Shown piece after piece: positions 4,564-46,046 of a DNA stretch of 46,046 nt. The notes under the pieces were generated by a model. The model was not told the DNA's origin. It saw only the letters and a program-made list of their open reading frames with translations, and made no database searches. Position 1 is the stretch's first letter. Each line of letters begins with the position of its first letter. The stretch lies in the IMG/VR virus record IMGVR_UViG_3300037761_000122, positions 1 through 46,046 of that record; one strand, 5' to 3'. The DNA comes from a virus. Position numbers and translations under genes: made by a program.

Positions 4564-5303
4564 GACGCTTCCACCTGCATGCGTGCTTGGTACTCGGCGT
4601 CGCTCTCCCACGCGGAGGGGATGGTGTTCCTGGTGGCCCCTTGCTCAGCTATCACAGTCTCGAGAATCCGGCGGAAGAAGCGGCCTTGGTACTCCTGGCC
4701 CTCGGCTTCCATGCGAGCGATCGCAATACTCAGGCATCGATCGCGATCCTTGGGGTCATCGAGTGCCTTCAGGAGCAGCGGATCAGTGCCCTCCGAGCCC
4801 TGCCAGCCGTACATACCCCTGACGGACTTGACCGTATCGACCCCTCGCGTGTGCTGACGCGCAACAGCGCCCTCGCTAGAGGGTGCTGTTATGTCAGTGG
4901 TCAGTGGTCGGTGGTCACGCGCGACAGTGTCACGCCGTGACGGGGGCGTGACACCCGTGACACTTTCCCGCTCGCGCTGCCTTCGTTTCCGCTTTGCAGC
5001 CGTCCGGTCCGGCTCCTGATACTCGTCCCACTTAACGACCTGCCACCTTCGACCTTCGACCTTCAGCCCTCCATCCTTCTCCTCCACGGCCGCGCGCAAC
5101 ATCTCCTGAACGGCGCGGACCGACACATCCCACCTCTTGGCGGCGACCTTCGGGGCCATCGCCGCAGCCTCGCCCTTGCGTCCGTCTCGCTTCACGTAGC
5201 AGAGCAGCTTGATCCATGCGAGCTGCGCCATAGGCTCGAGCATGGCCACCCACTCGGTATCATCCCACTGAGCGTCGAGACGTAGCCAGCGGCGTGCGCT
5301 CAC
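4560..5303 (-). CDS. Putative replisome-organiser / DNA-binding replication protein
   Basis: 247 aa. N-terminal winged-helix-like WLRLDAQWDDTEW...LAWIKLLCY pattern, basic linker KRKRRQRER. Function is inferred only. Confidence 0.4.
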   Translation of the reverse strand: MSARRWLRLDAQWDDTEWVAMLEPMAQLAWIKLLCYVKRDGRKGEAAAMAPKVAAKRWDVSVRAVQEMLRAAVEEKDGGLKVEGRRWQVVKWDEYQEPDRTAAKRKRRQRERESVTGVTPPSRRDTVARDHRPLTTDITAPSSEGAVARQHTRGVDTVKSVRGMYGWQGSEGTDPLLLKALDDPKDRDRCLSIAIARMEAEGQEYQGRFFRRILETVIAEQGATRNTIPSAWESDAEYQARMQVEAS

Positions 5304-5920
5304 CTCGCCTCCGTGACCAGCCGTGGCCTACACCCGTTCGTGGATATGAATGGGTGAGAGCGCTGGGGGGTGTTGGCGATGGGCACAGGAAGCATCGCTT
5401 GGCGACGGCCATTGATGCGCTTGGACACCTCCAACGCAGCATCATGGATGTCTGCCATTTTGCCCTGCGGATTAAACTTGCCCCTGCCCGCGATCCACCG
5501 CGTATCCATGTATCCGTCGGCGACGGGGCAGACCTCGATCTCAACCCAATAGTCGGCTTGCTCGATATGCGGAACCGATTTCACCACCAACCTGGCGTCG
5601 TCCGTAGCGTCCTTCGACAACAGCACGCCGGACATCTTTACTCCAGCCATACCCCACCGCATTTCCTCCACGTACCGCAGGAGCTGGACCACCGCGGCAA
5701 CGTCCGCGGCGGATCGCTTGATTTCGACGATCACCATACGCCAGTCATGGGTTGGGTCGAGCACCAGCAGGAGGACATCGATCCTCCCGCCGCTTGGTAA
5801 TTGGACTTGCCGCCCGACGAGCTCGACATGGGAGGCGGTCGAGCCACCATCCCAGATCGCACGCGGGTTATCGCAAACCCAATCCTCAATGTCCTTCTCG
5901 GTCCAACAGATTTCCGTCAT
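5300..5920 (-). CDS. PD-(D/E)XK nuclease-like protein (NucS/DUF91-type core)
   Basis: 206 aa. GGRIDVLLLVLD...VIVEIKRSAADVAAVVQLLRYV matches the D...ExK core. Visibly lower GC than its neighbours. Confidence 0.55.
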   Translation of the reverse strand: MTEICWTEKDIEDWVCDNPRAIWDGGSTASHVELVGRQVQLPSGGRIDVLLLVLDPTHDWRMVIVEIKRSAADVAAVVQLLRYVEEMRWGMAGVKMSGVLLSKDATDDARLVVKSVPHIEQADYWVEIEVCPVADGYMDTRWIAGRGKFNPQGKMADIHDAALEVSKRINGRRQAMLPVPIANTPQRSHPFISTNGCRPRLVTEAR

Positions 5921-8264: not shown

Positions 8265-8393
8265 TCATCGTCCGCTTCGGCCACCGCGGCGGGAGCTGCC
8301 CCCGAGCACCAGCCCCCGGCGCGCGTCGTCCAGGATGCGGGAGGACTCACGGCAGCACTCGGCGGTGCGGATGGCGGCGCGGTAGGCGGTCAT
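8265..8393 (-). CDS. 42-aa hypothetical peptide
   Basis: ATGA overlap with the dcm stop. Very high GC3 in frame. Below the ORF-track cut-off. Confidence 0.3.
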   Translation of the reverse strand: MTAYRAAIRTAECCRESSRILDDARRGLVLGGSSRRGGRSGR

Positions 8394-9196
8394 CGGCGAG
8401 GCTCCAGGGCGAGGCGTGAGCCGATCCACTCAGCGACTTGAGGGACTACGGCGTTTCCGAGGGCCCTAAGTCGGTCCACCCTGGCGGGAACCCCATGAGC
8501 CACTCGGTCCACATCGGGTTCAGCGCTCCACGCACCTTCATCTGCAACAAGGCGCCAGGAATCGAATCGCGATCGACTTGGGAGGGCGGTAGCGTCGAGT
8601 TCTTCGCGTCGTTCGCCGTTGGGGTTGGCCACACGTGTTTCGCGAGCCAGCCAAGCCCGCGATAGTGGTTGTTCGGTCCCGGCGAAGTCGCGTCGTATGC
8701 CACCGGCGTAGGCAACGACGAAGACGCGATAGCGGAGATGCGGGGCACCAACGGCCGCAGCCGGTATGCTCTCCCACTCCGCATCGTACCCGAGGTCGGC
8801 CAAGTCTCCGAGAACGTCTCCCATCCCGTGAACAAGCAACCCTGGGACGTTCTCCAGGAGTACGAATCTCGGTCGTAGCTCGCGAAGAATCCGGGCAAAT
8901 TCGGGCCAGAGCCATCGCTCGTCTTCTCGGGCGAGCTGCTTGCCGGCGACACTGACGGGCTGACATGGGAACCCTCCACACACGAGGTCGACCGGCTCGA
9001 GGTTGTGCGCTCCGACATCGTGTACGTCCTCGTAGCGGGGAACGTCGGGCCAATGCTTCGCGAGCACGGCACGGCAGAACGGGTCGATCTCCACCTGCCA
9101 CACCACCCGATGCCCGGCCCGCTCGAGCCCAAGGTCAAGGCCCCCGGTTTGAATGCCGGAGAACAACGACCCGATAGTCAGGACGCGCCCCGGCAT
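8390..9196 (-). CDS. dcm: DNA (cytosine-5)-methyltransferase
   Basis: 268 aa from the ATG at 9196. Motifs LFSGIQTGG (I), GGFPCQPVS (IV), ENVPGL (VI), RYRVFVV (VIII), GNAVVPQV (X). Confidence 0.9.
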   Translation of the reverse strand: MPGRVLTIGSLFSGIQTGGLDLGLERAGHRVVWQVEIDPFCRAVLAKHWPDVPRYEDVHDVGAHNLEPVDLVCGGFPCQPVSVAGKQLAREDERWLWPEFARILRELRPRFVLLENVPGLLVHGMGDVLGDLADLGYDAEWESIPAAAVGAPHLRYRVFVVAYAGGIRRDFAGTEQPLSRAWLARETRVANPNGERREELDATALPSRSRFDSWRLVADEGAWSAEPDVDRVAHGVPARVDRLRALGNAVVPQVAEWIGSRLALEPRR

Positions 9197-9843
9197 TTCT
9201 CCACCTCCTTGCAGCTGAGGTTGGCGGCTCGGCCATCGAAGCGGTGATGGCAGGAACGGCACATGCGGGCGTAGTCGTCCACATCGGTGTAATCGCCCGT
9301 GAGGTTGGCCCAATCGTAGATCGTGCCGTCATCGTCTCGGCCGCAGACGGAGCACAGAGAGGGCGTACCCCGGGCATTCTGGACGCGGGCGTGCAGGGCC
9401 TGGTACCCGGCTTTGTCACCCTTCCACATGTGGTTACGGGCACCGCGTTGGTTCCGCTTTGCCGCCGGGCGAGAAGCGATGGCGTGCCGACGCATCGCCT
9501 TGTGGATTACCTTCTGCGACACCCCCAACCGTTCGGCGACCTCGTGCTGAGACATCCCCTTGCCGTGGTACAGCCGTGCGATTTCCACCGGGTCTACTGG
9601 GGTGGCCTGCGCCTCGGACTTGCAGTCACGCGAACAGTAGCGAGGAGCCGGATTGTAGGACCGGAACCGCGACCCGCACGTCTCGCATTCATGCTCATGC
9701 TGCGACGGCGGACCGTGGCGAGCCGTGAGGGGGCGGGGCGGGGCGTCGGGCGTGCGCTTCGCGGGTCGGTTCGGAAGCGACGAAGCGGAATCGCCCCGCC
9801 CGGACCCGTCATTCGGCGCGTGGGCATCCTGTTTCGCACCCAC
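9178..9843 (-). CDS. Zn-ribbon + HTH + HNH-like nuclease-type protein
   Basis: 221 aa from the GTG at 9843. CETCG...YCSRDC, HTH MSQHEVAERLGVSQKVIHKAM, C-terminal CSVCG...CRSCHHRFD. The upstream part of the 635-aa ORF is antisense to the tRNA fragment and is a shadow frame. Confidence 0.6.
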   Translation of the reverse strand: MGAKQDAHAPNDGSGRGDSASSLPNRPAKRTPDAPPRPLTARHGPPSQHEHECETCGSRFRSYNPAPRYCSRDCKSEAQATPVDPVEIARLYHGKGMSQHEVAERLGVSQKVIHKAMRRHAIASRPAAKRNQRGARNHMWKGDKAGYQALHARVQNARGTPSLCSVCGRDDDGTIYDWANLTGDYTDVDDYARMCRSCHHRFDGRAANLSCKEVEKCRGAS

Positions 9844-10103: not shown

Positions 10104-11186
10104 CTACTGCCCCGCCAACCGTCCCGCCAGTTCTTTCGCTACGGCCATCTTCGGCTCGGCCACGTCCTGTCGGTAGCGGCCGTCGAGGGTGGAGCGGAGG
10201 GTGCCCGCCTGCAGGTCCGCGCCCGGCTGCCCGGACGCGAGCGTGGCGTACAGGCGTTTGAGGCCGTGCCAGAGCCGACCGTCGATGTGCTTGATCTTGG
10301 CCCCTTCCTCGGCGGCCTCCATCCACGCGTCGACCTCGTCGTGCGTCGGGACGCGCCAGTCGGTGCGCTCCGGCAGTCGGTACACCCACGCTTCGCCACC
10401 CTTGCCGGGCTTGTCCGTCTCGCGTGGGAAGCGGATCGCTGTCCACGTCTCGCCGTGGATCACGTCCGTGGGCTCGAGCCGCCGGATCGCACCGATGCGC
10501 CGGCCGGTCTGGTACGCCACCTCGCCCATCCACCCGGCGCGCGGCTCGACCTTCCAGAGCTCCGGCACCAGCTTCCTCGCCTCGGCCAGCGTGTAGGACA
10601 CACCCCGCCCGCGCGCTTTGGGGATCGTGACCGCACTCAGGTTGTGACGCGGCTCGATCCACTTGAGCTTTTTCTCGCCGTAGATGAAGCTGTCGACGAG
10701 GTAGCGGAGCACGTCTTGCAACCAGCGGTCCGACAGCCCGTCCTTGTCCCGTGCCTCGCGGGCGATCCGCTCGACGACGGCCGGCCGTACGTGCGTCAGC
10801 CGCGCATCCCCGAGCTTGTCCAGCCAGAACGTCTTTCGGAGGGTGCGGCTCTTGGCGTACTTGGGGCTCCACGTCGGCTCGAGGTCCGCGTGCCGTCGGT
10901 CGAGTAGCTCGGTCAGCGTGCGAGCGGTCGGGATGCCGAGCAGCTCGGCCGCCTGCTGGTTGCGCCTGCGCTCCTGAGCGGCCGACATCCGGCGCGCGAT
11001 GTCCTCGGCCATCTCCCGGCTGGTGATCGGATGCCCGACGACGCTCGACAGCGCGGCCCGGTGACGCCCCTCGTCGTCCCACCATTCTACAAAGATCGAT
11101 GTGGCATCGGGCCGCTCGAAAACTGTGACGCGTGAAACGCCCTTACGTCCGATACGGAAACGCCAGGCTGCCAAGAATCCCTGCAC
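10104..11186 (-). CDS. int: Tyrosine integrase
   Basis: About 360 aa. GRRIGAIRRL (Arg I), HGLKRLYAT (H-x-x-R), C-terminal Tyr in LDGRYRQ. Start is uncertain (GTG 11186 or TTG 11174). The far-upstream ORF-track start is implausible. Confidence 0.85.
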   Translation of the reverse strand: MQGFLAAWRFRIGRKGVSRVTVFERPDATSIFVEWWDDEGRHRAALSSVVGHPITSREMAEDIARRMSAAQERRRNQQAAELLGIPTARTLTELLDRRHADLEPTWSPKYAKSRTLRKTFWLDKLGDARLTHVRPAVVERIAREARDKDGLSDRWLQDVLRYLVDSFIYGEKKLKWIEPRHNLSAVTIPKARGRGVSYTLAEARKLVPELWKVEPRAGWMGEVAYQTGRRIGAIRRLEPTDVIHGETWTAIRFPRETDKPGKGGEAWVYRLPERTDWRVPTHDEVDAWMEAAEEGAKIKHIDGRLWHGLKRLYATLASGQPGADLQAGTLRSTLDGRYRQDVAEPKMAVAKELAGRLAGQ

Positions 11187-11350
11187 AGGTTGCGGGTCGC
11201 GATGTCCTCCCACATCTGGCACGTCGCCTCGCGCTCGTCCAGCCCCGGAGTCTTTTCGGTCCGGCAATCGGCCAGCGTCGCCTCCCCGTGGCCGTCCACC
11301 CACACCCTCGTCTCCCCCGGCAACCCGGCGATCGTCTCGGCGATGCTCAT
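11087..11350 (-). CDS. Hypothetical protein overlapping the integrase 5' end
   Basis: 87 aa from the ATG at 11350. The first half looks protein-like. The 3' ~90 nt overlap the integrase frame. Confidence 0.4.
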   Translation of the reverse strand: MSIAETIAGLPGETRVWVDGHGEATLADCRTEKTPGLDEREATCQMWEDIATRNLCRDSWQPGVSVSDVRAFHASQFSSGPMPHRSL

Positions 11351-11475
11351 CACTGCCCCCGCTCGTCCGGAGCCCGGTACTCACCATCATGCCGACGGAA
11401 CCAGCGGCCTGCCCACAACGCCAGAACCACCACGGCAAACGCGTAGCAGCCAGCGAACAGCATGCAGCCGGTCAT
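11350..11475 (-). CDS. 41-aa single-TM peptide
   Basis: MTGCMLFAGCYAFAVVVLALWAGRWFRRHDGEYRAPDERGQ with an ATGA overlap upstream. Confidence 0.4.
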   Translation of the reverse strand: MTGCMLFAGCYAFAVVVLALWAGRWFRRHDGEYRAPDERGQ

Positions 11476-13293: not shown

Positions 13294-13368
13294 TGGGGCC
13301 GGTGGGATTCGAACCCACATGTTCCGGGGTAAAAGCCCGGTCCGTTGCGCGGTTACGGTCACGGCCCC
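13294..13368 (-). tRNA. tRNA-Lys (anticodon UUU), non-canonical D-arm
   Basis: Acceptor GGGGCCG/CGGCCCC, anticodon arm CCGGG-CUUUUAC-CCCGG, T-arm GTGGG-TTCGAAT-CCCAC, discriminator A. The D-stem pairs poorly (3 bp). Confidence 0.75.
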
Positions 13369-13938: not shown

Positions 13939-14513
13939 GGGTAGTAGCCCCGATATCGAGGATCGCCGTTGTAGTAGGTCGAGGGCGGGCCGTGCGGGTC
14001 CGGATCGCCGAACTCGGTCGCCACCCACTCATCGCCGATCTCGTTCCACGTGTGGTCGATCCAGGCGGCGCACTTCTCCAGGTCGAGCGGCGGGTGCGCG
14101 GCCTCGAACGTCCGGCGTCCGACGCGGTGCAGCTCGGCGTGGTGGCCGGCGGGGCCGGAGCACAGGCGGGAGATGCGCGAGTGATGCGCCTTCCGTCCGG
14201 TGCCCTCGGTCTCGATGTGGGCGTTGTCACACTCCGTCCGGTAGCAGCCGGGCACGTCGCAGCGGCCACCGCGCTTGACCCAGATCACTCGCTCGATCGA
14301 GCCGTAGACCCGGTGCCACTCCTCGGCCTCACGCTCCTCGTCATGCCGGTAGCGCTCGTGGATGCCCTTGTCGTGTTCGATGCCGGCGGCCTCGAGGGCC
14401 TCCCACAACTCGGAAGACTCTCGGTGCCAGCGGCCTCGCTTCAGCGGGGTGCGGCGGGCGAGATCGGACGCTCGGAGCGGCTTCTTGCCGCGGGCCAGGG
14501 GCGTCTTCCTCAT
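13935..14513 (-). CDS. HNH-like nuclease (NinG/Rap-like architecture)
   Basis: 192 aa from the ATG at 14513. Basic N-terminus MRKTPLARGKKPLR...PLKRG. Cys/His cluster CDVPGC...CDNAHI...LC...HHAELH. Confidence 0.5.
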   Translation of the reverse strand: MRKTPLARGKKPLRASDLARRTPLKRGRWHRESSELWEALEAAGIEHDKGIHERYRHDEEREAEEWHRVYGSIERVIWVKRGGRCDVPGCYRTECDNAHIETEGTGRKAHHSRISRLCSGPAGHHAELHRVGRRTFEAAHPPLDLEKCAAWIDHTWNEIGDEWVATEFGDPDPHGPPSTYYNGDPRYRGYYP

Positions 14514-15079
14514 ACCATGGCCTCGTGCGCTCTGCGGCAACTGCGATGGTGGGCCTGGCGACCGTAGACGTACATAGCTGACGGGCTATCCCACTCCCTG
14601 CAGTAACGGCAACGCCTCCAGTCCGCATTTCCGCAGGCTTGGTGCGCACGCGCGCGACGCTCGATCAGGCAATGGTATGCGTGGTCCTCGCAGAGGACGA
14701 GGTTGCCGCGGCGGTTATCGTCCCGGATGCCGTTCACGTGGTGGACTTCGTGACAGGGGTCGAAGTGGCGGCCGATTGCGCGCTCAGCGATCAGCACGTG
14801 TTCCGCCACGTACCCGCGCATGTTCGCGCGCGGGTGGTCCGGACGATGAACTCGCACGTAGCCGTCGGCCATGTTCACGCGTCCGCCGTTCCACCTGTAA
14901 TGGCGCCGGCCTCGGGGCACCGGTGCATGGCCTCGTACGTAGCGCACGGGCTCGCCCTGAACGTCTCCTCGCCCGCTGCGGGTCTGCTTGGCAATTGACG
15001 TCATGCGCCCACATCCGCAGTGACAGCGCCCATAAGGGATCTGCGACGATGGCGGGTGCCTCAATCTTGCCCGGCTCAT
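14510..15079 (-). CDS. HNH endonuclease (HNH_3-type)
   Basis: 189 aa from the ATG at 15079. GYVRVHRPDHPRA...GYVAEHVL...EVHHVNGIRDDNRRGNLVLC. The upstream part of the 421-aa ORF is a shadow frame over the exonuclease gene. Confidence 0.8.
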   Translation of the reverse strand: MSRARLRHPPSSQIPYGRCHCGCGRMTSIAKQTRSGRGDVQGEPVRYVRGHAPVPRGRRHYRWNGGRVNMADGYVRVHRPDHPRANMRGYVAEHVLIAERAIGRHFDPCHEVHHVNGIRDDNRRGNLVLCEDHAYHCLIERRARAHQACGNADWRRCRYCREWDSPSAMYVYGRQAHHRSCRRAHEAMV

Positions 15080-15825
15080 GTCGCAGCCTCCTGTAGGCTG
15101 GCGATCAGCTCCCACTTCAGAGATTCGTCTTCCTCCACAACTTCGCCCATCGCGTGCAGCTTGCGTTCTGCCGTCGCGAGCTCGCGGAAGAAGCGTTGCA
15201 GGTGGTTGGTGATCGCCTCCTGCACGTCCTCCTCCGGGTAGACGCGCACTCGGATCTTCGGCAGGTCGGGGTTGAACGCGACCAGGTCGCACCACTCGCG
15301 TCCTGTCAGCCAGAGGTACCCGTTGGTTTGCAAGCGATAGTCGCCCGACAGGCTCTTGTGGCGCGTCAGGTACTGCATGTGCGTGGTCGCCTTCGGGCAC
15401 TTGATTTCGACGATGCCCTCGTCCCCCACGAGTCCGTCCGGCGAGCCTACGATCATGTCGTGGACGAAGCCGCCCTCGTCGGATACCGGGTCGCCCGCCT
15501 TGTCGACGCGCACCAGCTCGGTCGTGACCGCACCCACCTGCCGGACGTCCATGTCGTAATGCCACTCGTACCACTTGCGGCCGAAGTCCTCGCCCGCCTT
15601 GCCGTAGTCGGTCCAGAGCCCCGCGCCGGTCCGGTCTAGGACGCCGCCGAGCATGCGTTCGCCGATCAGTTCCGCGGCGTATCCCCGCGCGCCCGACGCG
15701 TAGCCGAGCTTTTCGGGCTGGATGATCCGCGACAGGCTGGACCCGGTGGGGTGGCCGGCCCTCAATGCCCACCACTCGTCACTGCCCTGCTCTATCTCGT
15801 GGATCGTGACCGGGCGCTCATGCAT
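15076..15825 (-). CDS. YqaJ/lambda-Exo-like recombination exonuclease
   Basis: 249 aa from the ATG at 15825. QGSDEWWALRAG N-terminus. PD-(D/E)XK core GSPDGLV...GIVEIKCP. Confidence 0.8.
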   Translation of the reverse strand: MHERPVTIHEIEQGSDEWWALRAGHPTGSSLSRIIQPEKLGYASGARGYAAELIGERMLGGVLDRTGAGLWTDYGKAGEDFGRKWYEWHYDMDVRQVGAVTTELVRVDKAGDPVSDEGGFVHDMIVGSPDGLVGDEGIVEIKCPKATTHMQYLTRHKSLSGDYRLQTNGYLWLTGREWCDLVAFNPDLPKIRVRVYPEEDVQEAITNHLQRFFRELATAERKLHAMGEVVEEDESLKWELIASLQEAAT

Positions 15826-16588
15826 CGGGCTTCGCCCCCTTCGCCTGGAGCGCGCGCCGGGCCTCGGTGAACCGATACGACGGCAGGGCCTTGAGCGAGC
15901 CGACGCCGAGGTAGGAGCAGAACCGGCGGGTGTCGGCGCCCGTGTCGGCAATCAGTTTCGTGAGCTCGTCGAACTCCGTGGCGTTGATCACCTCGGACGC
16001 ATCGCCTCCCGGCTGCTGGCCGTCCACGTCGTCATCAATCGTGATCCCCAGCAGTGCGGCCAGCACGTAGCGCTTGCCGTAGGTGATCGTGCCCGCGTAG
16101 CGCTGAGCGGGGCTGTCCTGCATGCCCGCGACGGGCAGGGTCACGGACGACTCGCGCGACGCGCCATCGACGTGCTGGAGGCGGCCCCGGATCTTGACCA
16201 GCTTGCCGTCCGTGTCCTCGGTGTCGAACGTGTAGGACAGCCCGACGCGGTGCAGCTCCGGGTCGATCACCTTCTGGATCGCACCGAGCGGCGCATAGTG
16301 GAAGTCGACCGACTTGCCGTTGGCCGTCGCGTACTTGACCTGCTTCGTCTTCTTGATCTCAGGGCACGCGGCCTTGAACTCCGCGAGCGCGACCACCAGC
16401 GCCGACTCGGCCTGGCGGTCTAGCAGCCGCATCTGCATGTCGACCAGCCGCTCGAGCGCCTCCACGCCCTCCGCTCCGTGCGCGAGCGCGGCGTCCATCA
16501 TCCGGGTCACGTCGGGCAGCGCTGCGGGCGCCTGAACGAGTGGTGCGGTCGCAACCGCGGTCCCGACCTCTATCTGTTCGTCGGCCAT
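15818..16588 (-). CDS. erf: ERF-family single-strand annealing protein
   Basis: 256 aa from the ATG at 16588 with a GGAGG RBS. FKAACPEIKKT...FHYAPLGAIQKVIDPEL...YGKRYVLAALLGITIDDDVDG. Confidence 0.8.
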   Translation of the reverse strand: MADEQIEVGTAVATAPLVQAPAALPDVTRMMDAALAHGAEGVEALERLVDMQMRLLDRQAESALVVALAEFKAACPEIKKTKQVKYATANGKSVDFHYAPLGAIQKVIDPELHRVGLSYTFDTEDTDGKLVKIRGRLQHVDGASRESSVTLPVAGMQDSPAQRYAGTITYGKRYVLAALLGITIDDDVDGQQPGGDASEVINATEFDELTKLIADTGADTRRFCSYLGVGSLKALPSYRFTEARRALQAKGAKPDA

Positions 16589-16611
16589 CGAGGCCTCCGT
16601 CGTTGGTGTGC

Positions 16612-16878
16612 TCACGCTCCGTCCCCCCACCCACGTAGCTGGTTCTCCCAGCGGTCGAGCAGGTGCTGTAGTTCGATGCATGCGGCCTGGTAGGTGTCCC
16701 TGGCCGGTACCGAATCGCTTCTCCGGCACGCGCGAATGTGCTCCACCCTAGCGTCCTCCCGCGCGTCGATCGCGTGCTCGATGTCGATGCGGGTGACCGT
16801 CTTGCGCCTGACCGTGGCGGGGTCGGTGGCGATCGTCGTGTAACTCGTCGGACGGGACGGCGACGTGCTCGCGCTCAT
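16612..16878 (-). CDS. Hypothetical protein
   Basis: 88 aa from the ATG at 16878 (ATGA overlap). Confidence 0.5.
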   Translation of the reverse strand: MSASTSPSRPTSYTTIATDPATVRRKTVTRIDIEHAIDAREDARVEHIRACRRSDSVPARDTYQAACIELQHLLDRWENQLRGWGDGA

Positions 16879-17248: not shown

Positions 17249-17465
17249 CGGAATTCTCCGGGGCTGTCGTGGGTGCGGGCCGCTCGTCGGGCAGCAGTCC
17301 GCCGGGCGCCCAATACCGGGCATACAGTTCGTCCCACACTTCCGGCCATGCCGCGCGTAGCTTCACGGCGTTCCGGTCGTCTGCCTTTCGCATTGCTGCC
17401 ATGATGAGCGCATGGAACGGGACGGCAGTTAGCTCCATCGAGCGTTCGTAGTCGTAGCGGCTCAC
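17241..17465 (-). CDS. Hypothetical protein
   Basis: 74-aa ORF with ATGA coupling. Confidence 0.55.
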   Translation of the reverse strand: MSRYDYERSMELTAVPFHALIMAAMRKADDRNAVKLRAAWPEVWDELYARYWAPGGLLPDERPAPTTAPENSDD

Positions 17466-17821
17466 TTGTCACCATCCGTGGGTGCGGGCCTGGCAGCGGA
17501 CAGAGCAGCGGCCACCTTGCAGGCGGGGAAGTGGGCGCCGTGTGCGTTCGTGACTTCGCAGTAGGGGCAGGCGGCTTCGTATCCGCCCTGCACCATGTCG
17601 GCCAGCCCACCCCACTCGACTGCCTTTAGCGCCTCGTACAGAGCGGGAGCCGCGGCAATCAGGGCAGCGTTCGCCCTTCCCCGTTCCGTGGGGTTGAACG
17701 CGCCGGGGGTGATGTCGTCGCGGAACCCGTCCTCGTTTGCCTCGCCGTGCACGACGCGGAGCCCGCACGTCGCGGTGTGCTCGACGTACCACGGGCCCGG
17801 AGTGAATTGTCCGGTCATCAT
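17462..17821 (-). CDS. Hypothetical protein of the GPW...ANAxLIAAAPxLYEAL family
   Basis: 119 aa from the ATG at 17821. Paralogous to 17818..18105 through the NAALIAAAPALYEALKAVE motif. Confidence 0.6.
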   Translation of the reverse strand: MMTGQFTPGPWYVEHTATCGLRVVHGEANEDGFRDDITPGAFNPTERGRANAALIAAAPALYEALKAVEWGGLADMVQGGYEAACPYCEVTNAHGAHFPACKVAAALSAARPAPTDGDK

Positions 17822-18105
17822 GTGGGAGCCTCCGTGCCTTCGGCCTTCGCGATGGCGGCGCTGATCTTGTCCCACAGCCACGCCGGTACCTGGCCCGCGT
17901 CGTTCTCGATCGACGACAGCGCCTCGTACATGTCCGGAGCGGAGGCGATCAGGCGGGCGTTGGAGGCGATCTCAGCATTTTCGAAGTCCGTCCATGCCGG
18001 GAACGCCACTGCGCGACCGCTCTCGTCCTGCACGCGTATGGCCTTGCTCTCGTTCTCGTGGTCGTACCGGACCGTCCACGGACTCCGGTTGAACCCGCTC
18101 ACCAT
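17818..18105 (-). CDS. Hypothetical protein of the SPW...NARLIASAPDMYEAL family
   Basis: 95 aa from the ATG at 18105. Tandem paralogue of the downstream gene. Confidence 0.6.
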   Translation of the reverse strand: MVSGFNRSPWTVRYDHENESKAIRVQDESGRAVAFPAWTDFENAEIASNARLIASAPDMYEALSSIENDAGQVPAWLWDKISAAIAKAEGTEAPT

Positions 18106-18300
18106 GTCGCCACCCCACACAGCAGGATCACCGCGAGCTCGTTGAGATAGTCGAGCATCGCGAGCGTCGTGTGCTGGCGGCTCTTGGCCGATGCGTATTC
18201 CTCGGTCTCGGGCTTCGGGAGGTAGAGGACGGGGGGACTCGCCGGGGCGGATGTTTGGCATCCGGCGTGCCGGTTCTCGGATCTATGCGGCGGCATTCTT
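18106..18300 (-). ncRNA. Candidate TnpB omega-RNA 3' scaffold / element right-end region
   Basis: 177-nt ORF-poor gap after the tnpB stop at 18283. Stem-loop CGGAUG-CCAAA-CAUCCG at 18248..18264 and CCGG-CACG-CCGG beside it. Boundaries are not determinable by eye. Confidence 0.3.
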
Positions 18301-19395
18301 CTGCCCTCCGCTCCCCGATCGCTCTGCCCGAGCGAGGATGTTGCGCGCGGCGTTCACGTCCCGATCGAGCTCGAGCCCGCAGGTGCAGCGATGCACCCGG
18401 ACGCCCAGACTCTTGGGGGAGACGCTGCCACAGCCGCTGCATTCCTGAGACGTTCCGCGAGGGTCCACCGCGATCACTTCCCGCCCGGCGCTTTCAGCCT
18501 TGGTTCGGAGTGCGTGGAGGAACTGGCCCCAACCGGCGTCCGACACGCTCTTGGCGAGTCGGGTGCGGGCGAGGCCGCGGATGTTCAGGTCTTCGACAGC
18601 GATCGTGTCGTACCGCTGAACGAGGTCCACCGCGGTCTTGAAGTGGAAGTCGCGTCGCGCGTCCTGCACGGCCCGGTGCTTCCGGGCGAGAACGCGGACC
18701 GCCTTCCGGCGTCGGTTCCCGCCTCGCTTCCTGCGGCTCACCCGGCGCTGCGCGCGACGGAGATCCGCTGCGGCGGTCCGAAGGTGGCGCGGGTTGTCGA
18801 CCGTCTCGCCGTCCGAGGTCGCGAGGAACGAGGTGAGGCCAAGGTCGACGCCGATCGCTCGGCCGGTGTCGGCCAGCGGGCGTGCGGGGACACCCTCGCA
18901 GGAGAACGTCACCCACCAGTCGCCGCACCGGTCCCGCTTGAGCGTGACCGTCTTCGCGGTGCCCTCGATCGGGCGTGACAGGTGCAGCTTGATCCGGCCG
19001 ATGCCACGCAGGGTCAGGTGGCGACCGTCGAGCTTCCAACCTCTCTGGCGGAACGTGATCGAACTGAACCTGTCGCGGCCCTTGAAGCGTGGGTAGCCGG
19101 GCCGTTCGCCGTTCTTGACGCGCCGAAAGAACGCCTGGAACGCGCGCTCCAACCGGCTAAGCGTCCACTCGGTCGCGTGACGATCGAGGGCGCCATACTC
19201 GGGATCGGCCGCGCGGATCTCGGTGAGCTGGCGGCATTGGGTCACAAAGTTGACCCGCTCGCCTCGCTTCCAGTGGTCGCGCCGCTCCTCGAGGGCCGCA
19301 TTGTAGAGGTCTCGGAGGATGTGCAGCTGGCGATCCGCCCGGCGTGCTGCGCACGCCGTCAGCCTGGCCTTGTATCGGTAGGACCGCCTCATCAC
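18283..19395 (-). CDS. tnpB: TnpB (IS200/IS605-family OrfB) RNA-guided endonuclease, catalytic residues intact
   Basis: 370 aa. RuvC-I AIGVDLG, RuvC-II IAVEDLN, Zn finger CSGCG...CTCG, RuvC-III DRDVNAARNI. Start overlaps the stop of the upstream HTH gene. Confidence 0.9.
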   Translation of the reverse strand: MMRRSYRYKARLTACAARRADRQLHILRDLYNAALEERRDHWKRGERVNFVTQCRQLTEIRAADPEYGALDRHATEWTLSRLERAFQAFFRRVKNGERPGYPRFKGRDRFSSITFRQRGWKLDGRHLTLRGIGRIKLHLSRPIEGTAKTVTLKRDRCGDWWVTFSCEGVPARPLADTGRAIGVDLGLTSFLATSDGETVDNPRHLRTAAADLRRAQRRVSRRKRGGNRRRKAVRVLARKHRAVQDARRDFHFKTAVDLVQRYDTIAVEDLNIRGLARTRLAKSVSDAGWGQFLHALRTKAESAGREVIAVDPRGTSQECSGCGSVSPKSLGVRVHRCTCGLELDRDVNAARNILARAERSGSGGQKNAAA

Positions 19396-19607
19396 GCCAC
19401 CTCGTCAGGGCCATCGGTGACCGGGTGGGCGTTGCTCGCGACCCATGCCCGGATGTCGCTGGGGCGGAAGCGATTCAGCGCTCCGACCTTCACGATGGGG
19501 ATGCGGCGCTCCTGCGCCCACTTCCGGACGGTCTTCCACGAGACGCCTAAGTACGCGGCGACATCCTCGTATCCCCAAAGATCGTCATTGCCTTGGGACT
19601 CGGTCAT
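19392..19607 (-). CDS. Excisionase/HTH_17-type DNA-binding protein (Cro/Xis-like first early gene)
   Basis: 71 aa. YEDVAAYLGVSWKTVRKWAQERRIPIVKVGALNRFRPSDIRAWV. Divergent from the XRE repressor. Confidence 0.75.
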   Translation of the reverse strand: MTESQGNDDLWGYEDVAAYLGVSWKTVRKWAQERRIPIVKVGALNRFRPSDIRAWVASNAHPVTDGPDEVA

Positions 19608-19669
19608 TGGCTACTCTTGGCTTGGTGTCTTTGAGTGGCACGCGGTGTATCGCGGTGCGCGACCATGTG

Positions 19670-19698
19670 ATTCTATGGTATAGCGGACCTCAGCGCAA
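19670..19698 (-). promoter_or_regulatory. Sigma70-like early leftward promoter with embedded operator-like palindrome
   Basis: Minus strand reads TTGCGC, 17 nt, TAGAAT. CTATACCATAG (19673..19683) overlaps the spacer and -10. Confidence 0.5.
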
Positions 19699-19746
19699 TA
19701 GCTTTCGGTGGGATACAATGGAAACCTATGCCGCACAATGGGTTGC

Positions 19747-19765
19747 GCCCATAGAAACTATGGGC
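19747..19765. promoter_or_regulatory. Perfect 8-bp inverted repeat GCCCATAG-AAA-CTATGGGC covering the repressor start codon
   Basis: Read directly. Shares CTATGG/CCATAG with the site at 19673..19683. The ATG at 19760 lies in the right arm. Confidence 0.55.
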
Positions 19766-20071
19766 CCCCGCGTCCGTCGGCTGCGAAAGCAGCGCGATTG
19801 GACCCAGGAGGAGCTGGCCGAGAAGGTCAGCGTGGCGGTGCTCACCGTGGGCGAGTGGGAGCGCGAGAACCGAGCCCCGACCTCGGCGAACCTGATGAAG
19901 CTTTCCGAGGCCTTAGGGGTGCCCGTCCACTACCTGCTGTACGGCGAGGCCGGGGTCTACCGGGAGGCTATTGAGCAGATCGCCGACATCGTCGACCGGG
20001 TGCTCAGTCCACCAGCCAAAGGTGATCCCCGGACCGACCTGGCCCACGGGATCGCTCGCGGCGAAGGGTAG
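19760..20071 (+). CDS. XRE-family HTH repressor (CI-like, no peptidase domain)
   Basis: MGPRVRRLRKQRDWTQEELAEKVSVAVLTVGEWERENRAPTSANLMKLSEALGV. An alternative upstream ATG is at 19718. Confidence 0.8.
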   Translation: MGPRVRRLRKQRDWTQEELAEKVSVAVLTVGEWERENRAPTSANLMKLSEALGVPVHYLLYGEAGVYREAIEQIADIVDRVLSPPAKGDPRTDLAHGIARGEG

Positions 20072-20871: not shown

Positions 20872-21209
20872 CCCGCGTGCAGTCCGCGATGGACGGCTCC
20901 GAGTACCGCGCCCTGCGTGAGACGATAGGCACCCAGGCCGAGGCGGCCGAGAGGCTCGGCGTCGCCCGGAACACGATCGCCAGACGCGAGCGCGGGGAGC
21001 TGTCGATCTCACGAGAAGTGGAGTACGCGATGCGCTGGGTGGCCCGCAGACAGCGGTTCACGATGGAGGACGTGGAAAGCCTGCGCGCCATCGCGAACGT
21101 GACACTGGACCGTGACCCGACCGAGCCTCACGCCAACCCGGTCGCCGCCGAACGCCACAGATCCATCGCTGACCGCATCGAAGCCTTACTCCCCCCGGCC
21201 GGAGATTGA
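20868..21209 (+). CDS. HTH (XRE-like) regulator with C-terminal FTxEDV...ADRIEALLPP domain
   Basis: 113 aa. HTH TQAEAAERLGVARNTIARRERGE. C-terminus homologous to 3113..3385. ATGA overlaps both sides. Confidence 0.7.
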   Translation: MTRVQSAMDGSEYRALRETIGTQAEAAERLGVARNTIARRERGELSISREVEYAMRWVARRQRFTMEDVESLRAIANVTLDRDPTEPHANPVAAERHRSIADRIEALLPPAGD

Positions 21210-22129
21210 CCATGCACATGCCGATGACCGTGGTACGAAAGACGGCGTTTCTGCCGCGCCAGGGCTTTCGCGATACCCGCTGGCTCGATCGGGTCGCCGA
21301 GCTTGGCCTACGTGAGGTCGAGGGCGAGCACCTGACAACGTGTCCAGGATGCGGACAGGAGCCCGAGCGCGTGATCGGCCAATACGTCCACTACTCGCAC
21401 CTCGGGCGGCTCATGGAGTGCTTATGCGGGCTCTGGTATTCGGACCTCCGGCTGAACGCTGAGACGGTCCGCGCCCACTTCGAGCGGGCGTACAAGGACG
21501 ACGGCTACTTCCGGGCACGAAGGCCCGTCTTCGACCACCTCGCGCGGCTCGTGAGTCAGCGCACGCCCCCTGGTGGATCCGTGCTCGACGTCGGTGGCGC
21601 GATGGGGCATCTGGCGCTCATGATCTGGAACATCCGACCCGACGTCGACCTGACCGTGACCGACGTGTCCGAAGATGCGTGCCGAAAGGCCAGAACGTGC
21701 GGCCTCCACGCGCTGCCGGTATCGGTCGCGGGCCTGCGTTGGCTACCGCAGTACGACGCCGTGATCTGCTCCGACGTGCTCTACTATGAGCCGAACATCG
21801 GGCAGGTGTGGGAGACGCTCTCGGGCATCGTCCGACCCGGCGGCTCGCTCATCATCCGCGGCCCCAACCGGACGGACACGATCCGCCATGCGGGCGGGAA
21901 GCAGCACCCGCTTTCGACTCGGCTCCGTGGCTTCAACCCCGAACACCTGTATGTGTTCACGCGCGAGTACCTCGAGGCGCGTCTGGCCGAGGTCGGGTTC
22001 ACCGGGGTCCGCACGCTGCCGTCGCCGGTGGGCACGGGCTCACGCCTCGCCACGCTCGCGGGTCGGGTCGCGTGCACCCTCGGGCTCCCAGTCACGCCGA
22101 GCGTGGTGACGATCGCGAGGAAGCCGTGA
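21206..22129 (+). CDS. Class I SAM-dependent methyltransferase with N-terminal Cys-rich (Zn-ribbon-like) domain
   Basis: 307 aa. CPGCG...CLCG, then motif I VLDVGGAMG, post-I TDVSEDA, DAVICSDVLYY, and PGGSLII. Confidence 0.8.
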   Translation: MTMHMPMTVVRKTAFLPRQGFRDTRWLDRVAELGLREVEGEHLTTCPGCGQEPERVIGQYVHYSHLGRLMECLCGLWYSDLRLNAETVRAHFERAYKDDGYFRARRPVFDHLARLVSQRTPPGGSVLDVGGAMGHLALMIWNIRPDVDLTVTDVSEDACRKARTCGLHALPVSVAGLRWLPQYDAVICSDVLYYEPNIGQVWETLSGIVRPGGSLIIRGPNRTDTIRHAGGKQHPLSTRLRGFNPEHLYVFTREYLEARLAEVGFTGVRTLPSPVGTGSRLATLAGRVACTLGLPVTPSVVTIARKP

Positions 22130-41544: not shown

Positions 41545-42807
41545 TCAGGCCGCCACCCGCTCCAGCGCGGCCACGTCGTTGAGGTCCTCGATCACGCCGT
41601 TCGCGTTCCGCTGCACCGTGCAGAGCTGATGGTACTTGCGGATGTAGCCCTCGATCGCGTCCTTGTCGGTCACGCGGTCGAACGTCGCGCCGTCCATGTC
41701 GGCCCACTCGGTACCGACCAGGTCCGCCGTCCGGAACGCGCTCGTGTTCAGGAAGAACATGCGCGAGGACGGGCAGTCGAGGTCCCCGATGACCGGGATG
41801 CTTCCGCCCGCGTGGATCACGGCAGCGATGGGCTTGTAGCCGCCCTTCAGCTGCACGTCCTGGCCGTCGAGCCGCCGAAGCGGCAGGAAGATCTCGGAGT
41901 ACTTCAGCACGATGCCCGGCCTCGTCACGATGAGGTTCGGCATCTGGCGGCTGCGGCTCCGGATCGTCTCGATCATCTGCATGACCAGCGAGTCGCTGAT
42001 GTCACGCAGGGTGCCCGAGTTCGCCATCACGACCGACTGCCAGCCGAGCGTGATCGGGATCGTCTCGAACGTGTTGGACGCCTCGACCGACGCGAGCAAG
42101 CCCAGCACCTCGCCGTCCGTGATGTTGTCCGTGTCCGAGGTCGAACGGGTCACGTAACCCGCGTCGGTCGTGGTAACCGTCGAGTCGACCGTGATCTGGT
42201 TGTTCGTGTGGTCGACGGCGGTGACCGTACGGCGTCCGATCAGCGTCGTGCCGTCGGACTCGTAGAACGCGACCGCGTCACCCACGTACAGGTGCCGGGT
42301 GCCGAGCCCGCCGTTCGTGACGGCGTAGTCGGTGCCGAGCGTCTGGGTCGCGCTCGCGCCGTCCGCCGTCGCGGGGATGCTGGCCAGGAAGCCGTCGCCC
42401 CCGCCGAACAGCTGGCGGTTGACCTCCAGGTCGTGCGCCTGGAGCCGGTCCGACATCGTCTCGGCCAGAGCGGGCCGGAACGAGCCGGCCTGACGCTTAG
42501 TGACCTCGATCGCGAGGCCGTCGAGCGCCATCCTGGTGTAGGTCCTGACGACCGTGGCCTCGCCCTGGTCGTACTTGCCCTCGTCGGCCGCCGGCAGCGT
42601 CTTGTTCGCGCCCGCGTTCGCGGACCCGCCACCGATTTGCAGCTTGACGCCGAAGATCCACTTCTTGCCGGTGAAGTTCGCGTTTTCGAGCCTCGCGAAC
42701 TGCGACTTGAGCGCCGTCTCCGGGTTGGTCTGGTTCACCCAGACGTTCGTGAAATAGTCCTTGGCGAGGTCCGTCAGCTCGGTCAAGGTGGTTGGCGTAA
42801 CAGCCAT
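41545..42807 (-). CDS. Major capsid protein (HK97-fold type)
   Basis: 420 aa with a GAGGTAG RBS. Follows the scaffold gene. Composition and length are typical. Confidence 0.8.
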   Translation of the reverse strand: MAVTPTTLTELTDLAKDYFTNVWVNQTNPETALKSQFARLENANFTGKKWIFGVKLQIGGGSANAGANKTLPAADEGKYDQGEATVVRTYTRMALDGLAIEVTKRQAGSFRPALAETMSDRLQAHDLEVNRQLFGGGDGFLASIPATADGASATQTLGTDYAVTNGGLGTRHLYVGDAVAFYESDGTTLIGRRTVTAVDHTNNQITVDSTVTTTDAGYVTRSTSDTDNITDGEVLGLLASVEASNTFETIPITLGWQSVVMANSGTLRDISDSLVMQMIETIRSRSRQMPNLIVTRPGIVLKYSEIFLPLRRLDGQDVQLKGGYKPIAAVIHAGGSIPVIGDLDCPSSRMFFLNTSAFRTADLVGTEWADMDGATFDRVTDKDAIEGYIRKYHQLCTVQRNANGVIEDLNDVAALERVAA

Positions 42808-43878: not shown

Positions 43879-45771
43879 CTATGCGGCGGTGTTGGTTGGG
43901 GCGTTCTGCTCGGCTTCCAGGGCCATCATCTGAGCGGCCTGGAGACGGATCATGGACTGGTGTTCGTTGATGTGGATCGCGACGAGCTGCCGGATCGGCC
44001 ACGGCTTCGTGTCGTCCAGCAAGATCTCCTCGTGCAGCCGGATATGCGTCTCGTGGTCGTCGTTCATCGGCAGCAGGTAGGGCGAACCGTCGTGCGGGTG
44101 GATCAGCGCGGGCAGGCCAGCGAGCGGCGTGCCTTCGGGCGCTTCGACGACCGCGCATTCCTGGCGCTCGATGGCGAGGTTTTCGGTCCGGGCGCGAGCG
44201 TAGTGGCGGGTCTCGGACTCGAACACGCCATCTACACCGCGGCCGAGGTCCATCAGCAGCAGCCCTTCACGGGGCGCGATGTACTGCTTGTCCATCATCC
44301 GCTCGACCTCGGCGTTGAACGCCGCCTGCGAGGTCGGGCGGAAGCCTTCCAGGTCGATCGTGATCGTCTCGGGGTCGGGCAGGTCGGAGCCCTTGACGCT
44401 CTCGACTAAGAAGCCGAGGTCGGGCCGCTCGACGGGGATCCAGCGCTGCTCGTGCTCGCCGTAGCCCCAGCGCGCGATGCCGAGCGTCTGGCGGCCCCAC
44501 CCGATCAGGCTCTTTTTCAGCGTCTTGACCGAGTCGTGGAGCTGGCCGTTCTGGCTCTCCTGGAGCAGCTGGATGGCTACACCGGACTCGACGCCGGTCG
44601 GTACCTGACCACGTGCCACCTCGTTGAACGCGCCGATCGTGTACATGGCCTGCTCGGCCTTCTCGATCAGCCGCCAGCGATCGGGGGGCACGCTTCCGGG
44701 AGGGACACGCTGCACCAGATCGCCGATGCTCCGGTTCGCGAGCGCGGATTGCATCGGGATCTTGATGTGCGCCGCGCTCAGATTCGTGATCTGCTCAGAC
44801 AGCCCCGGCACGTCGAACATCGCCCACTGCCCTGGACCCGACAGCGCCATCTCCTCGAGGATCAGCGACCACTGCTTGTTCAGCACCTTCTGCGGATGCA
44901 CGAGGTCGTCGACCGTCGGGCGACCGTAGCCGTCGAAGGGCCTGCGCTCGTCGTAGATCGGCACGTACGGGACGAAGCCCTGGGGCAGCACGTCGTCGTA
45001 GAGCAGCTCGTCGCCACCGATCACGACCAGGCGTCCCTCGGGCAGCGTATCGGACGGCGCCTCCCAATACTCACACAGCAGCGTCAGCTCTTTGTCGGGG
45101 ATCTGCTTGCCGTCCCGGCCCGCCATGAGGTCGTTGCCGCTCGTCATCTCGGCGCGGTGGCCTACCGTGCGAATCAGGCTCTCGAACTGCTTGAGCTGTG
45201 CGATGCCGGCGACCGTCTGCACCTTCTTGGCCGCCTCGCCGTAGCGTTCCTTGACGACCGAGATCGGTACGACCTCGGAGTCGATCAGCCAACGGAAGCC
45301 CTCAGCGGGGAGTAGTCCGAACGCGTCCGGGTTCAAGCGGATGTTGAACAACGTGCGGACCGCGGTGTCGGCATCCCCCGGCCGGTAGGTGAACGCGCCG
45401 TCGAGCTGTTCCAGCGGCTCGCCCGTCTCTGGGTCCGCCAGCGGCTCACCTTCGGGGCTGACCGGGTAGTTTTGCACCTGGCCCGTGAGCGGGTTCTGGA
45501 TCTGCACCGTCGCCGGCACGAGCGTGCCGATGTCAGGGTTCCAAAACTGCTTGAGGTAGGACGCTCCGCACGCGAACCCGAGCCAGAGCCCGTATCGCAG
45601 CTTGGCCTCCAGTTCCCCACCGTTCCACCGCGCTTCGAGGAGGTTCGTCGCGATCGTCGCCTTGTCCCTGGCCTCGTGCGCGTTCGAGTCGGGGACGGCG
45701 CGCCACGAGAGCTCGGAGGAGAGCAGCCGTTGGAGGCGGGCACGCAGGATCGGCCGGATGTAGTTCATCAC
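43879..45771 (-). CDS. Portal protein (listed from the first canonical start; the coding signal continues upstream to 46035)
   Basis: 630 aa from the GTG at 45771. The same frame stays open with high GC3 for 88 more codons up to a TAG at 46036..46038, with no ATG/GTG/TTG in that stretch. Confidence 0.8.
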   Translation of the reverse strand: MMNYIRPILRARLQRLLSSELSWRAVPDSNAHEARDKATIATNLLEARWNGGELEAKLRYGLWLGFACGASYLKQFWNPDIGTLVPATVQIQNPLTGQVQNYPVSPEGEPLADPETGEPLEQLDGAFTYRPGDADTAVRTLFNIRLNPDAFGLLPAEGFRWLIDSEVVPISVVKERYGEAAKKVQTVAGIAQLKQFESLIRTVGHRAEMTSGNDLMAGRDGKQIPDKELTLLCEYWEAPSDTLPEGRLVVIGGDELLYDDVLPQGFVPYVPIYDERRPFDGYGRPTVDDLVHPQKVLNKQWSLILEEMALSGPGQWAMFDVPGLSEQITNLSAAHIKIPMQSALANRSIGDLVQRVPPGSVPPDRWRLIEKAEQAMYTIGAFNEVARGQVPTGVESGVAIQLLQESQNGQLHDSVKTLKKSLIGWGRQTLGIARWGYGEHEQRWIPVERPDLGFLVESVKGSDLPDPETITIDLEGFRPTSQAAFNAEVERMMDKQYIAPREGLLLMDLGRGVDGVFESETRHYARARTENLAIERQECAVVEAPEGTPLAGLPALIHPHDGSPYLLPMNDDHETHIRLHEEILLDDTKPWPIRQLVAIHINEHQSMIRLQAAQMMALEAEQNAPTNTAA

Positions 45772-45919: not shown

Positions 45920-46046
45920 AGCCGCTTGACGTAGTCGGCTACTTCGGCGGGCTTGGAACCCGGCGCGGGGTAGTGGTCCCCGCGTGTCTCTTTGAGTCTG
46001 GCACGAACGTCAGGCGCGGGAGGCGCCTGGTTCAGCTAGAGTCTGA
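45920..46046. repeat. Terminal direct repeat, copy 2 (circularisation overlap)
   Basis: Exact 127-nt identity with 1..127. Confidence 0.97.

Follow-up and report, generated by a model that had tools for sequence, protein, structure and literature searches.

The window analysed here is an entire metagenome contig of 46,046 bp from the Joint Genome Institute (JGI), filed in IMG/VR as IMGVR_UViG_3300037761_000122, and our subject is a tnpB gene on its minus strand together with the omega-RNA encoded at the 3' end of that gene. A divergent control region separates the late from the early genes of this phage, with an XRE/CI-like repressor gene on the plus strand and the early operon on the minus strand. 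The operon opens with a gene for a small protein of the HTH_17 family, whose stop codon overlaps the start codon of tnpB; the omega-RNA extends to the right end of the element, and the 3' part of a conserved small early gene lies directly beyond it.

The tnpB coding sequence occupies 18283..19392 (minus strand; ATG 19392-19390, stop TAG 18285-18283) and specifies 369 residues, with matches to the Pfam models OrfB_IS605 (the RuvC domain; E = 6.4e-25) and Cas12f1-like_TNB (1.1e-22) and a weak N-terminal match to HTH_OrfB. A phmmer comparison with the TnpB of ISDra2 (8EXA/8BF8) aligns residues 13-356 at E = 8e-47. The motifs GVDLG, AVEDLN, and DRDVNAARNI align with those that carry D191, E278, and D361 of ISDra2 TnpB, and the corresponding residues, counted from the ATG, are D183 (codon 18846-18844), E267 (18594-18592), and D345 (18360-18358). 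A zinc finger, comprising C318xxC321 and C336xC338, is located between RuvC-II and RuvC-III, and its second pair (CxC) is common to 36 of 111 close homologues. An earlier note on this DNA, made from the letters alone, had recognized TnpB hallmarks in the open reading frame (ORF) 18283..19395 of the minus strand, had assumed that the RuvC residues occupy catalytic positions, and had taken the protein to be nuclease-competent and not a TldR-type regulator. The profile search (6e-25 for OrfB_IS605 and 1e-22 for Cas12f1-like_TNB) and the alignment agree with this assignment, the catalytic triad and the zinc finger being intact in a full-length protein. The note left the start as GTG or ATG; because the homologues and the JGI and Logan gene calls begin with MRRS, the start is ATG 19392, giving the 369 residues, and not GTG 19395.

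We predict from these features that the window TnpB is an active nuclease, and purifying selection on the gene argues for activity. The ratio of nonsynonymous to synonymous substitution rates (dN/dS) is 0.13-0.26 against phage-borne copies (0.145 against the copy in contig L009, and 0.21-0.26 against the others). Compared with L009, the 5' half of tnpB and the omega-RNA region are 98-100% identical, the tail of the omega-RNA and the first 17 bases of the flank are 100% identical, and the flanks are 85-95% identical. Within tnpB, a patch of ~300 nt (18497-18797) is 87-93% identical to L009, the remaining gene being 98-100% identical, a pattern that suggests exchange between tnpB alleles.

The omega-RNA scaffold (18255..18339, minus strand) overlaps the last 55 nt of tnpB and continues 28 nt past the stop codon. 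Because Rfam holds no family that matches this region, neither at the gathering score nor at E ≤ 10, we built a covariance model of our own from 45 other loci, with the window and its near-identical copies left out. This model finds a single match in the 46 kb of the window, at 18339..18255 on the minus strand, with 60.7 bits and E ~1e-11, the next best match scoring 10.8 bits. Among ~60 loci, the 3' region contains a conserved stem GGCNC-GGGCA-GNGCC, a long-range UCGG/CCGA pairing, an inner hairpin, the motif GAUCCGAGAA, and a freely covarying terminal hairpin, and it ends in GUGUCAC or G(U/C)CAA, where all similarity stops. Compensatory changes are present in 12 of 12 RNAalifold pairs, and the terminal hairpin (at least 4 bp) forms in all 56 distinct terminal segments. 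The minimum-free-energy fold of the window RNA equals the family consensus, with the stem CUCGCUC/GAGCGA, the long-range UCGG/CCGA pairing, the inner hairpin, and the terminal hairpin CCGG-CACG-CCGG (18273-18262). The terminal hairpin is followed by ATGCCAA, and the right-end terminus of the element (...GGAUGCCAA / ..CCGGCACGCCGGATGCCAA) finishes at 18255.

The earlier note had looked for the omega-RNA in a 177-nt, ORF-poor gap downstream of tnpB. The covariance search places the scaffold mostly inside the 3' end of the gene itself; moreover, the supposed gap is not non-coding, its first 28 nt being the tail of the omega-RNA and the right end, and its remainder the 3' part of a small phage gene. 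The note had also singled out a stem-loop at 18248..18264, which does exist (z-score only -1.8), although it is not a feature of the family: it pairs the scaffold end CGGAUG with guide bases 2-7 (CAUCCG) and displaces the conserved terminal hairpin.

Directly 3' of the family-wide right-end terminus lies the predicted guide, ACATCCGCCCCGGCGA (18239..18254, minus strand), composed of the first bases of the flanking phage gene; its length of 16 nt is our assumption, carried over from ISDra2. Outside the guide site, the window genome contains no exact match to this guide, and the closest site has 2 mismatches. A scan of IMG/VR with the guide pattern gave 55 matches, just one of which, in the contig of L204, is the real small gene.

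That gene defines the insertion site. The sequence after the right end (18099..18254, minus strand; ...GHIRPGEPPVLYLPPPETEEYASAKSR..LAMLDYLNELAVILLCGVATW) codes for the last 45 residues of a conserved small early protein with an intact length of 64-69 residues, and lacks the first 49 nt and the ribosome-binding site (RBS) of the gene. Among the clusters of this small gene, 12 are intact and 2 are interrupted. Two relatives without tnpB, L204 (34.9 kb) and L205 (18.3 kb), have the small gene intact within an early region that is syntenic with that of the window, the Y8K6-like gene and Erf among the shared genes. In both relatives, homology to the window restarts exactly at 18254, one base past the right end and 49 nt into the small gene, which indicates that the element began as a normal insertion of the IS200/IS605 type; by these alignments, the right junction is that of a canonical insertion into a phage gene. 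The empty sites read ...CTCGTCCTCGGCC|ACATACGCCCCGGCGAG in L204 and ...CTCGTGCTCGGCC|ACATCCGCCCCGGCCAG in L205. The guide matches each of them at 15 of 16 positions, the mismatch being at position 5 in L204 and at position 15 in L205. Thus the recognition site is present in the relatives without tnpB and is split by the element in the window. We note that one JGI sample (3300037755) yields both L009, which has tnpB, and L205, which has none. Two other reconstructions of the empty site (..GCGTG|ACATCC and ..CCTGAC|ACATCC) are superseded, as L204 and L205 show the interrupted gene's own, now missing, 5' end.

In the window, the right end has the canonical features of IS200/IS605 elements, namely a subterminal hairpin, a terminal tetranucleotide, and a precise join to the target, and the window contains none of the corresponding left-end features (hairpin, target motif, and the other half of the interrupted site). 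The window lacks the RBS and first 49 nt of the small gene, along with all sequence further upstream of it, and its tnpB ATG is directly abutted by the HTH_17 coding sequence. Similarity of the DNA to seven independent copies extends exactly from that ATG (19392) to 12 nt past the stop codon. Local alignment of the right end with the window's own upstream sequence finds no right-end-like hairpin within 350 nt of tnpB; the aligned upstream regions of nine close copies share nothing beyond ~15 nt; and no conserved hairpin is present inside the 5' coding region of tnpB. A tblastn search of the window with the TnpA of the family gives no match better than E = 0.38. The earlier note was right that no conventional left end fits between the HTH gene and tnpB. 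The gene has no promoter of its own. With the HTH_17 stop fused to the tnpB ATG and the left end gone, expression must therefore come from a phage promoter. Short strings resembling element ends do occur ahead of the start: TGAC lies 13 nt upstream of the window ATG (19407-19404), and L002, L008, and L010 have (T/G)GAC-CGA-like strings ahead of theirs; we judged these too short to interpret.

The HTH_17 gene (19392..19607, minus strand) is the first gene of the early operon and encodes a Cro/Xis-like protein of 71 residues (Pfam HTH_17, 1.3e-11; PHROG 66, 'excisionase and transcriptional regulator'), in accordance with the excisionase/HTH_17 assignment made earlier. Its stop TGA (19394-19392) shares the final A with the tnpB ATG (19392-19390), forming TGATG, with GAGG 8 nt upstream. 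The string GTGATGA at this overlap runs from 19395 to 19389, one base away from the 19390..19396 first given. Opposite to the operon lies the XRE/CI-like repressor gene (19748..20071, plus strand, start codon provisional; Pfam HTH_3 4.5e-15, Phage_CI_repr 5e-07, and PHROG transcriptional repressor families), so that the early promoter is indeed divergent from the repressor. This putative promoter (TTGCGC-17-TAGAAT; 19670..19698, minus strand) has its -35 at 19698-19693 and its -10 at 19675-19670. It had been called the best sigma70-like promoter in the window, which does not hold by count: it matches the consensus at 8 of 12 positions, as do 23 other sites in the window, two sites reach 9 of 12, and a promoter scan of the window finds no promoter at the scan threshold. 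The site does exist, is intergenic, and is kept in the related immunity region of L039 (TTGCCT-17-TAGAAT). No convincing terminator is present between it and tnpB.

By repeat search and reading of the sequence, the control region (19662..19765) contains operator-like CCATAG repeats. An operator-like palindrome had been placed in the promoter spacer; palindromes are present, but they overlap the -10 (ACCAT-N8-ATGGT, 19679-19662) and the start of the repressor gene, where the perfect palindrome GCCCATAG-N3-CTATGGGC lies at 19747-19765. Three CCATAG-type sites can be counted in 19662-19765, with an imperfect palindrome between the two outer ones. A CCATAG half-site is present at the -10 of L039 too.

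Comparison with L039 separates the HTH_17 gene from the element. In L039, an 81%-identical HTH_17 gene accompanies the same repressor and promoter, an unrelated gene comes next, and tnpB is absent; only the final 33 nt ahead of the tnpB ATG are non-homologous between the window and L039. Conversely, close relatives of the TnpB (72-85% identity) occupy unrelated phage sites without HTH_17, and the junction of HTH_17 and tnpB is seen only in near-identical contigs (L001, 100%; L009, ~95%). In our reading, the HTH_17 gene is part of the immunity module and not of the tnpB element, and its pairing with tnpB arose secondarily and by accident, when an ordinary IS insertion lost its left end. These comparisons run counter to the view of the earlier note that the two genes are hard-wired and that the nuclease is no passive IS passenger, as does the right junction, a textbook IS200/IS605 insertion with precise empty sites in relatives. 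A plain recent insertion, which that note would have recognized by an empty site and hairpins at both ends, is half borne out: the precise empty site and the right-end hairpin are there, but the left end is not.

A wider block around the element differs between the phages. The segment 20141..18255, carrying the repressor, HTH_17, and tnpB, stands in place of a different immunity block in L204 (4874-6050) and L205. The right edge of the differing block is exactly the TnpB target site, and its left edge falls inside a small gene convergent with the repressor. Such boundaries could result if the immunity cassette were co-converted in the course of a TnpB-induced repair, and could result equally from ordinary module exchange.

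Copies of the window TnpB are numerous among phages. It matches 396 phage-genome records, and close homologues (72-85% identity) occupy seven or more further phage-like contexts (L002, L003, L004/5, L006/7, L008, L010, and L200). All eight contexts examined for relatives at least ~60% identical are phage-like contigs. Among cellular genomes, taken as one genome per species, no relative exceeds 55% identity, and those at or below 55% are found in Chloroflexia, Ktedonobacterales, and Acidobacteriota. The more distant solo copies L042, L053, L073, and L200 do have a clear left-end hairpin, 60-140 nt ahead of tnpB, and when the right end of each copy was aligned with its 350 nt of upstream sequence, only this more distant group gave significant alignments. 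Full IS605 copies of the main clade (L011-L017, L043-L062, and others) have a divergent Y1 tnpA, start with TGAC|CGAGA.., and end with ..GAGTTGTCAC|; in the clade ending in TCAA, TTAC lies ~20 nt 5' of the left-end hairpin.

Among the nine closest copies, five (L003, L004, L006, L040, and L041) have a TAnnnT box 5-6 nt ahead of their start codons, which suggests a leaderless transcript from a promoter of the element's own. In L003, L004, and L006, tnpB is antisense to both neighbours; in L040 and L041 only downstream neighbours are called, and these converge on tnpB. The co-oriented copies (the window, L008, L002, and L010) have no such box, which fits a dependence of the window copy on read-through.

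Loss of the intact small gene appears to have been made good by the phage. A predicted ORF of 65 residues (18099..18296, minus strand; JGI gene calls P0123 and P0125) starts at ATG 18296 inside the 3' end of the element, with GGAGG 8 nt upstream, and fuses 14 element codons to the truncated small gene. A single inserted T at 18237, just beyond guide position 17, restores the frame of this fusion; it is present in the window and L009 and absent from L204 and L205. As the ATG and the GGAGG lie inside the scaffold, binding of TnpB to the scaffold could compete with translation of the fusion ORF.

We consider it probable that the locus holds a selfish, solo IS200/IS605 tnpB with its omega-RNA, stranded in the early operon and homing against relatives that lack tnpB. 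According to this explanation, a solo tnpB of the IS200/IS605 family would have inserted canonically 49 nt into the small early gene of a temperate-type phage. Later, a deletion or a module exchange would have removed the left end, the promoter of the element, and the 5' portion of the small gene, fusing the tnpB ATG to the stop codon of the first early gene, HTH_17, and leaving an element that a TnpA transposase could no longer move. Both tnpB and the omega-RNA would now be made from the early transcript of the phage, upon infection or derepression, with translation of TnpB presumably coupled to that of HTH_17, and TnpB would probably cut scaffold and guide out of the operon mRNA. The guide would be the first ~16 nt of the interrupted gene next to the element, and the natural target would be the intact gene in relatives without tnpB. 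In a cell that also contains a related phage or prophage of that kind, the nuclease would cut its genome, and recombinational repair, for which the phage Erf is a candidate, would copy tnpB, and possibly the linked immunity genes, into the cut relative; where repair failed, the competitor would be damaged. Among the roles put forward in the earlier note, homing of this kind fits best, the guide matching an intact gene in relatives without tnpB and the site being split in the carrier, and selfish homing against such relatives is the most likely role on the sequences at hand. A part in excision, or an attack on host loci, finds no support: the guide is the flanking phage gene, with no exact match elsewhere in the genome of the phage, the guide searches having covered this genome and IMG/VR.

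Several observations weigh against this explanation. In the empty sites, the 5' flank of the target is CTCGGCC| (flank and target together, CTCGGCC-ACATCCGCCCCGGC), which matches neither the TGAC of the main clade nor the TTAC of the TCAA-ending clade. This mismatched flank puts a usable transposon-associated motif (TAM) in the relatives, and with it their cutting, in doubt and is the main weakness of the argument. The mismatch of L204 at guide position 5 may block cutting. In the predicted fold of the free RNA including the guide, guide bases 2-7 are paired with the scaffold end, and this pairing could mask the seed in unbound RNA. The layout of HTH_17 and tnpB is found only in near-identical contigs, so that its conservation is shallow. 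Finally, no relative with an intact left end at the small-gene site turned up, and the left junction is not reconstructable.

The alternative that survives best, although we regard it as unlikely, is that of an inert relic: an ordinary IS insertion minus its left end, a decaying passenger whose transcription is incidental read-through. It accounts readily for a window without left end and TnpA, for the interruption of the small gene in just 2 of 14 clusters, for the shallow distribution of the arrangement, and for the damage that the insertion did to a conserved phage gene. Decay is, however, hard to reconcile with a tnpB ORF that is intact with every catalytic and zinc residue and has a dN/dS of 0.145 against L009 and ~0.2 against phage-borne copies without a detected left end. 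The omega-RNA likewise retains 60.7 bits and is 99-100% identical to that of L009 where the flanks have diverged by 5-15%, and the close TGATG join of the two genes, preceded by GAGG at a distance of 8 nt, points to selection for expression.

A lower probability still attaches to a domesticated phage function, such as RNA-guided excision, attack on a host locus, or a wider exclusion of competitors, in which tnpB would be deliberately paired with the HTH protein. The position of tnpB as second gene of the early operon, with translation apparently coupled to HTH_17, its loss of mobility by transposition, and the purifying selection on it would all be expected of such a function. Yet the guide is the flanking interrupted gene, as in any IS copy, and the closest other site in the genome has 2 mismatches; HTH_17 and tnpB are each found without the other; and unrelated genes occupy the same position in L204 and L205. 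Last, that HTH_17 and tnpB move together as a single unit, such as an IS607-like element with its serine recombinase truncated to the helix-turn-helix, is highly improbable and in practice refuted: the N-terminal domain of IS607 TnpA has the HTH_17 fold and the two genes overlap like IS607 tnpA and tnpB, but the 71-residue protein has HTH_17 alone and no resolvase domain, the gene has its own repressor, operators, and promoter and occurs 81% identical in L039 without tnpB, similarity to other tnpB copies begins at the tnpB ATG and not upstream, those copies have no HTH_17, and the more distant TnpB-family relatives that keep a transposase have Y1 TnpA and not a serine recombinase.

The genome around the locus is that of a complete phage. 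The terminal 127 bp of the contig are identical (1-127 and 45920-46046), giving a genome of ~45.9 kb that is circular or terminally redundant, and with this overlap and no host flanks the label of prophage, used earlier, is not borne out. The genome encodes a large terminase (1148-2716), a P22-like portal (43879-45771), a major head protein (41545-42807), the Erf recombinase (15818-16729), a tail protein with a pectate-lyase fold, and DNA methylases. A search of INPHARED and IMG/VR returned almost no close relatives of this phage. Behind the fusion ORF, the next early gene (17818..18105, minus strand; 95 residues, PHROG_1273 at 2.3e-15, P22 Y8K6-like) has its start overlapping the fusion-ORF stop (ATGGTGA), and its syntenic counterpart in L204 and L205 carries PF27050. 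It is one of two adjacent paralogues (17462-18105; 95 and 139 residues), both PHROG_1273 and P22 Y8K6-like, with a single copy in L204 and L205. An ORF of 444 residues (10104-11438) has a weak match to PHROG_1 'integrase' (8.9e-13) and none to any Pfam recombinase model, and a tRNA-Lys(UUU) gene (13294-13368) lies 1.9 kb from it. Other nucleic-acid enzymes are encoded at 5300-5920, 8390-9313, 14510-15775, and 21206-22129, comprising a NucS-like endonuclease, a C5 cytosine methylase, an HNH endonuclease, and an S-adenosylmethionine (SAM) methyltransferase.

Among characterized systems, the window element is most directly comparable to ISDra2 TnpB (PDB 8EXA/8H1J), with which it shares the domain order, the D-E-D triad, an omega-RNA that overlaps the 3'-terminal part of the gene and runs up to the right end, and a guide read from the flank. 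Unlike ISDra2, it has neither tnpA nor a left end, its second zinc pair is CxC and not CxxC, its right end finishes with CCAA, and its expression would come from the phage operon and not from the element. Like solo tnpB elements of the IS1341 type and IS608 (target TTAC, right end TCAA), it has a single tnpB gene and a right-end hairpin followed by (T/C)CAA, and an IS608-like layout, with a left-end hairpin and TTAC ~20 nt upstream, is seen in the distant relatives L042, L053, L073, and L200; in the window, by contrast, the left end is missing entirely, and the target flank in the empty sites is GGCC and not TTAC. TldR regulators are similar in being TnpB-family proteins detached from transposition and placed in a host operon, whereas the window protein has intact catalytic residues and no C-terminal truncation, and its guide is the native flank and not a promoter target.

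Processing of the omega-RNA from its own mRNA by TnpB has been described (PMC10278001). IS605 has been reported to spread among plasmid copies by a TnpB-driven, TnpA-independent 'gene drive' (PMC11870625), and 'non-restorative transposon homing' into co-infecting phages has been proposed in theory (PMC13565253). The mechanism that we propose resembles the plasmid gene drive, in which an empty allele on a replicon in the same cell is recognized by the guide, cut, and repaired from the occupied copy; related phages, resident or co-infecting, would take the part of these replicons here. The free-standing homing endonucleases Seg and Mob of T4 offer a second parallel: a nuclease gene located among conserved phage genes, a target in relatives without the gene, and an expected co-conversion of neighbouring markers. 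In contrast to these enzymes, the window TnpB would be RNA-guided and self-protected by its split site, and it is unrelated to them in sequence and fold.

A broader and more doubtful possibility concerns the phage-borne lineage as a whole: TnpB proteins that share ~60% identity or more with the window protein may have abandoned transposition and persist as free-standing, RNA-guided homing nucleases. If so, repair of a cut made in a related phage would, in the present case, transfer the entire block of repressor, HTH_17, and tnpB, from about 20141 exactly to the target site at 18255 (the segment that differs from L204), and the nuclease would drive the spread of its linked immunity type between phages. 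Phage-encoded tnpB genes are already known, with their function unexplored, and are annotated 'transposase' in hundreds of phage genomes. The locus described here illustrates how a phage operon captures an IS and how the phage may compensate for the damaged gene, and it is no new kind of system. It does provide a clean natural test case, with a nuclease competent by sequence, a confidently placed omega-RNA and guide, and no confounding transposase. With a target in relatives that lack tnpB, at least one of them from the same sample as a carrier, it would allow a test of TnpB as a gene drive or a weapon between phages, where gene drive by an RNA-guided nuclease has so far been demonstrated only for plasmids.

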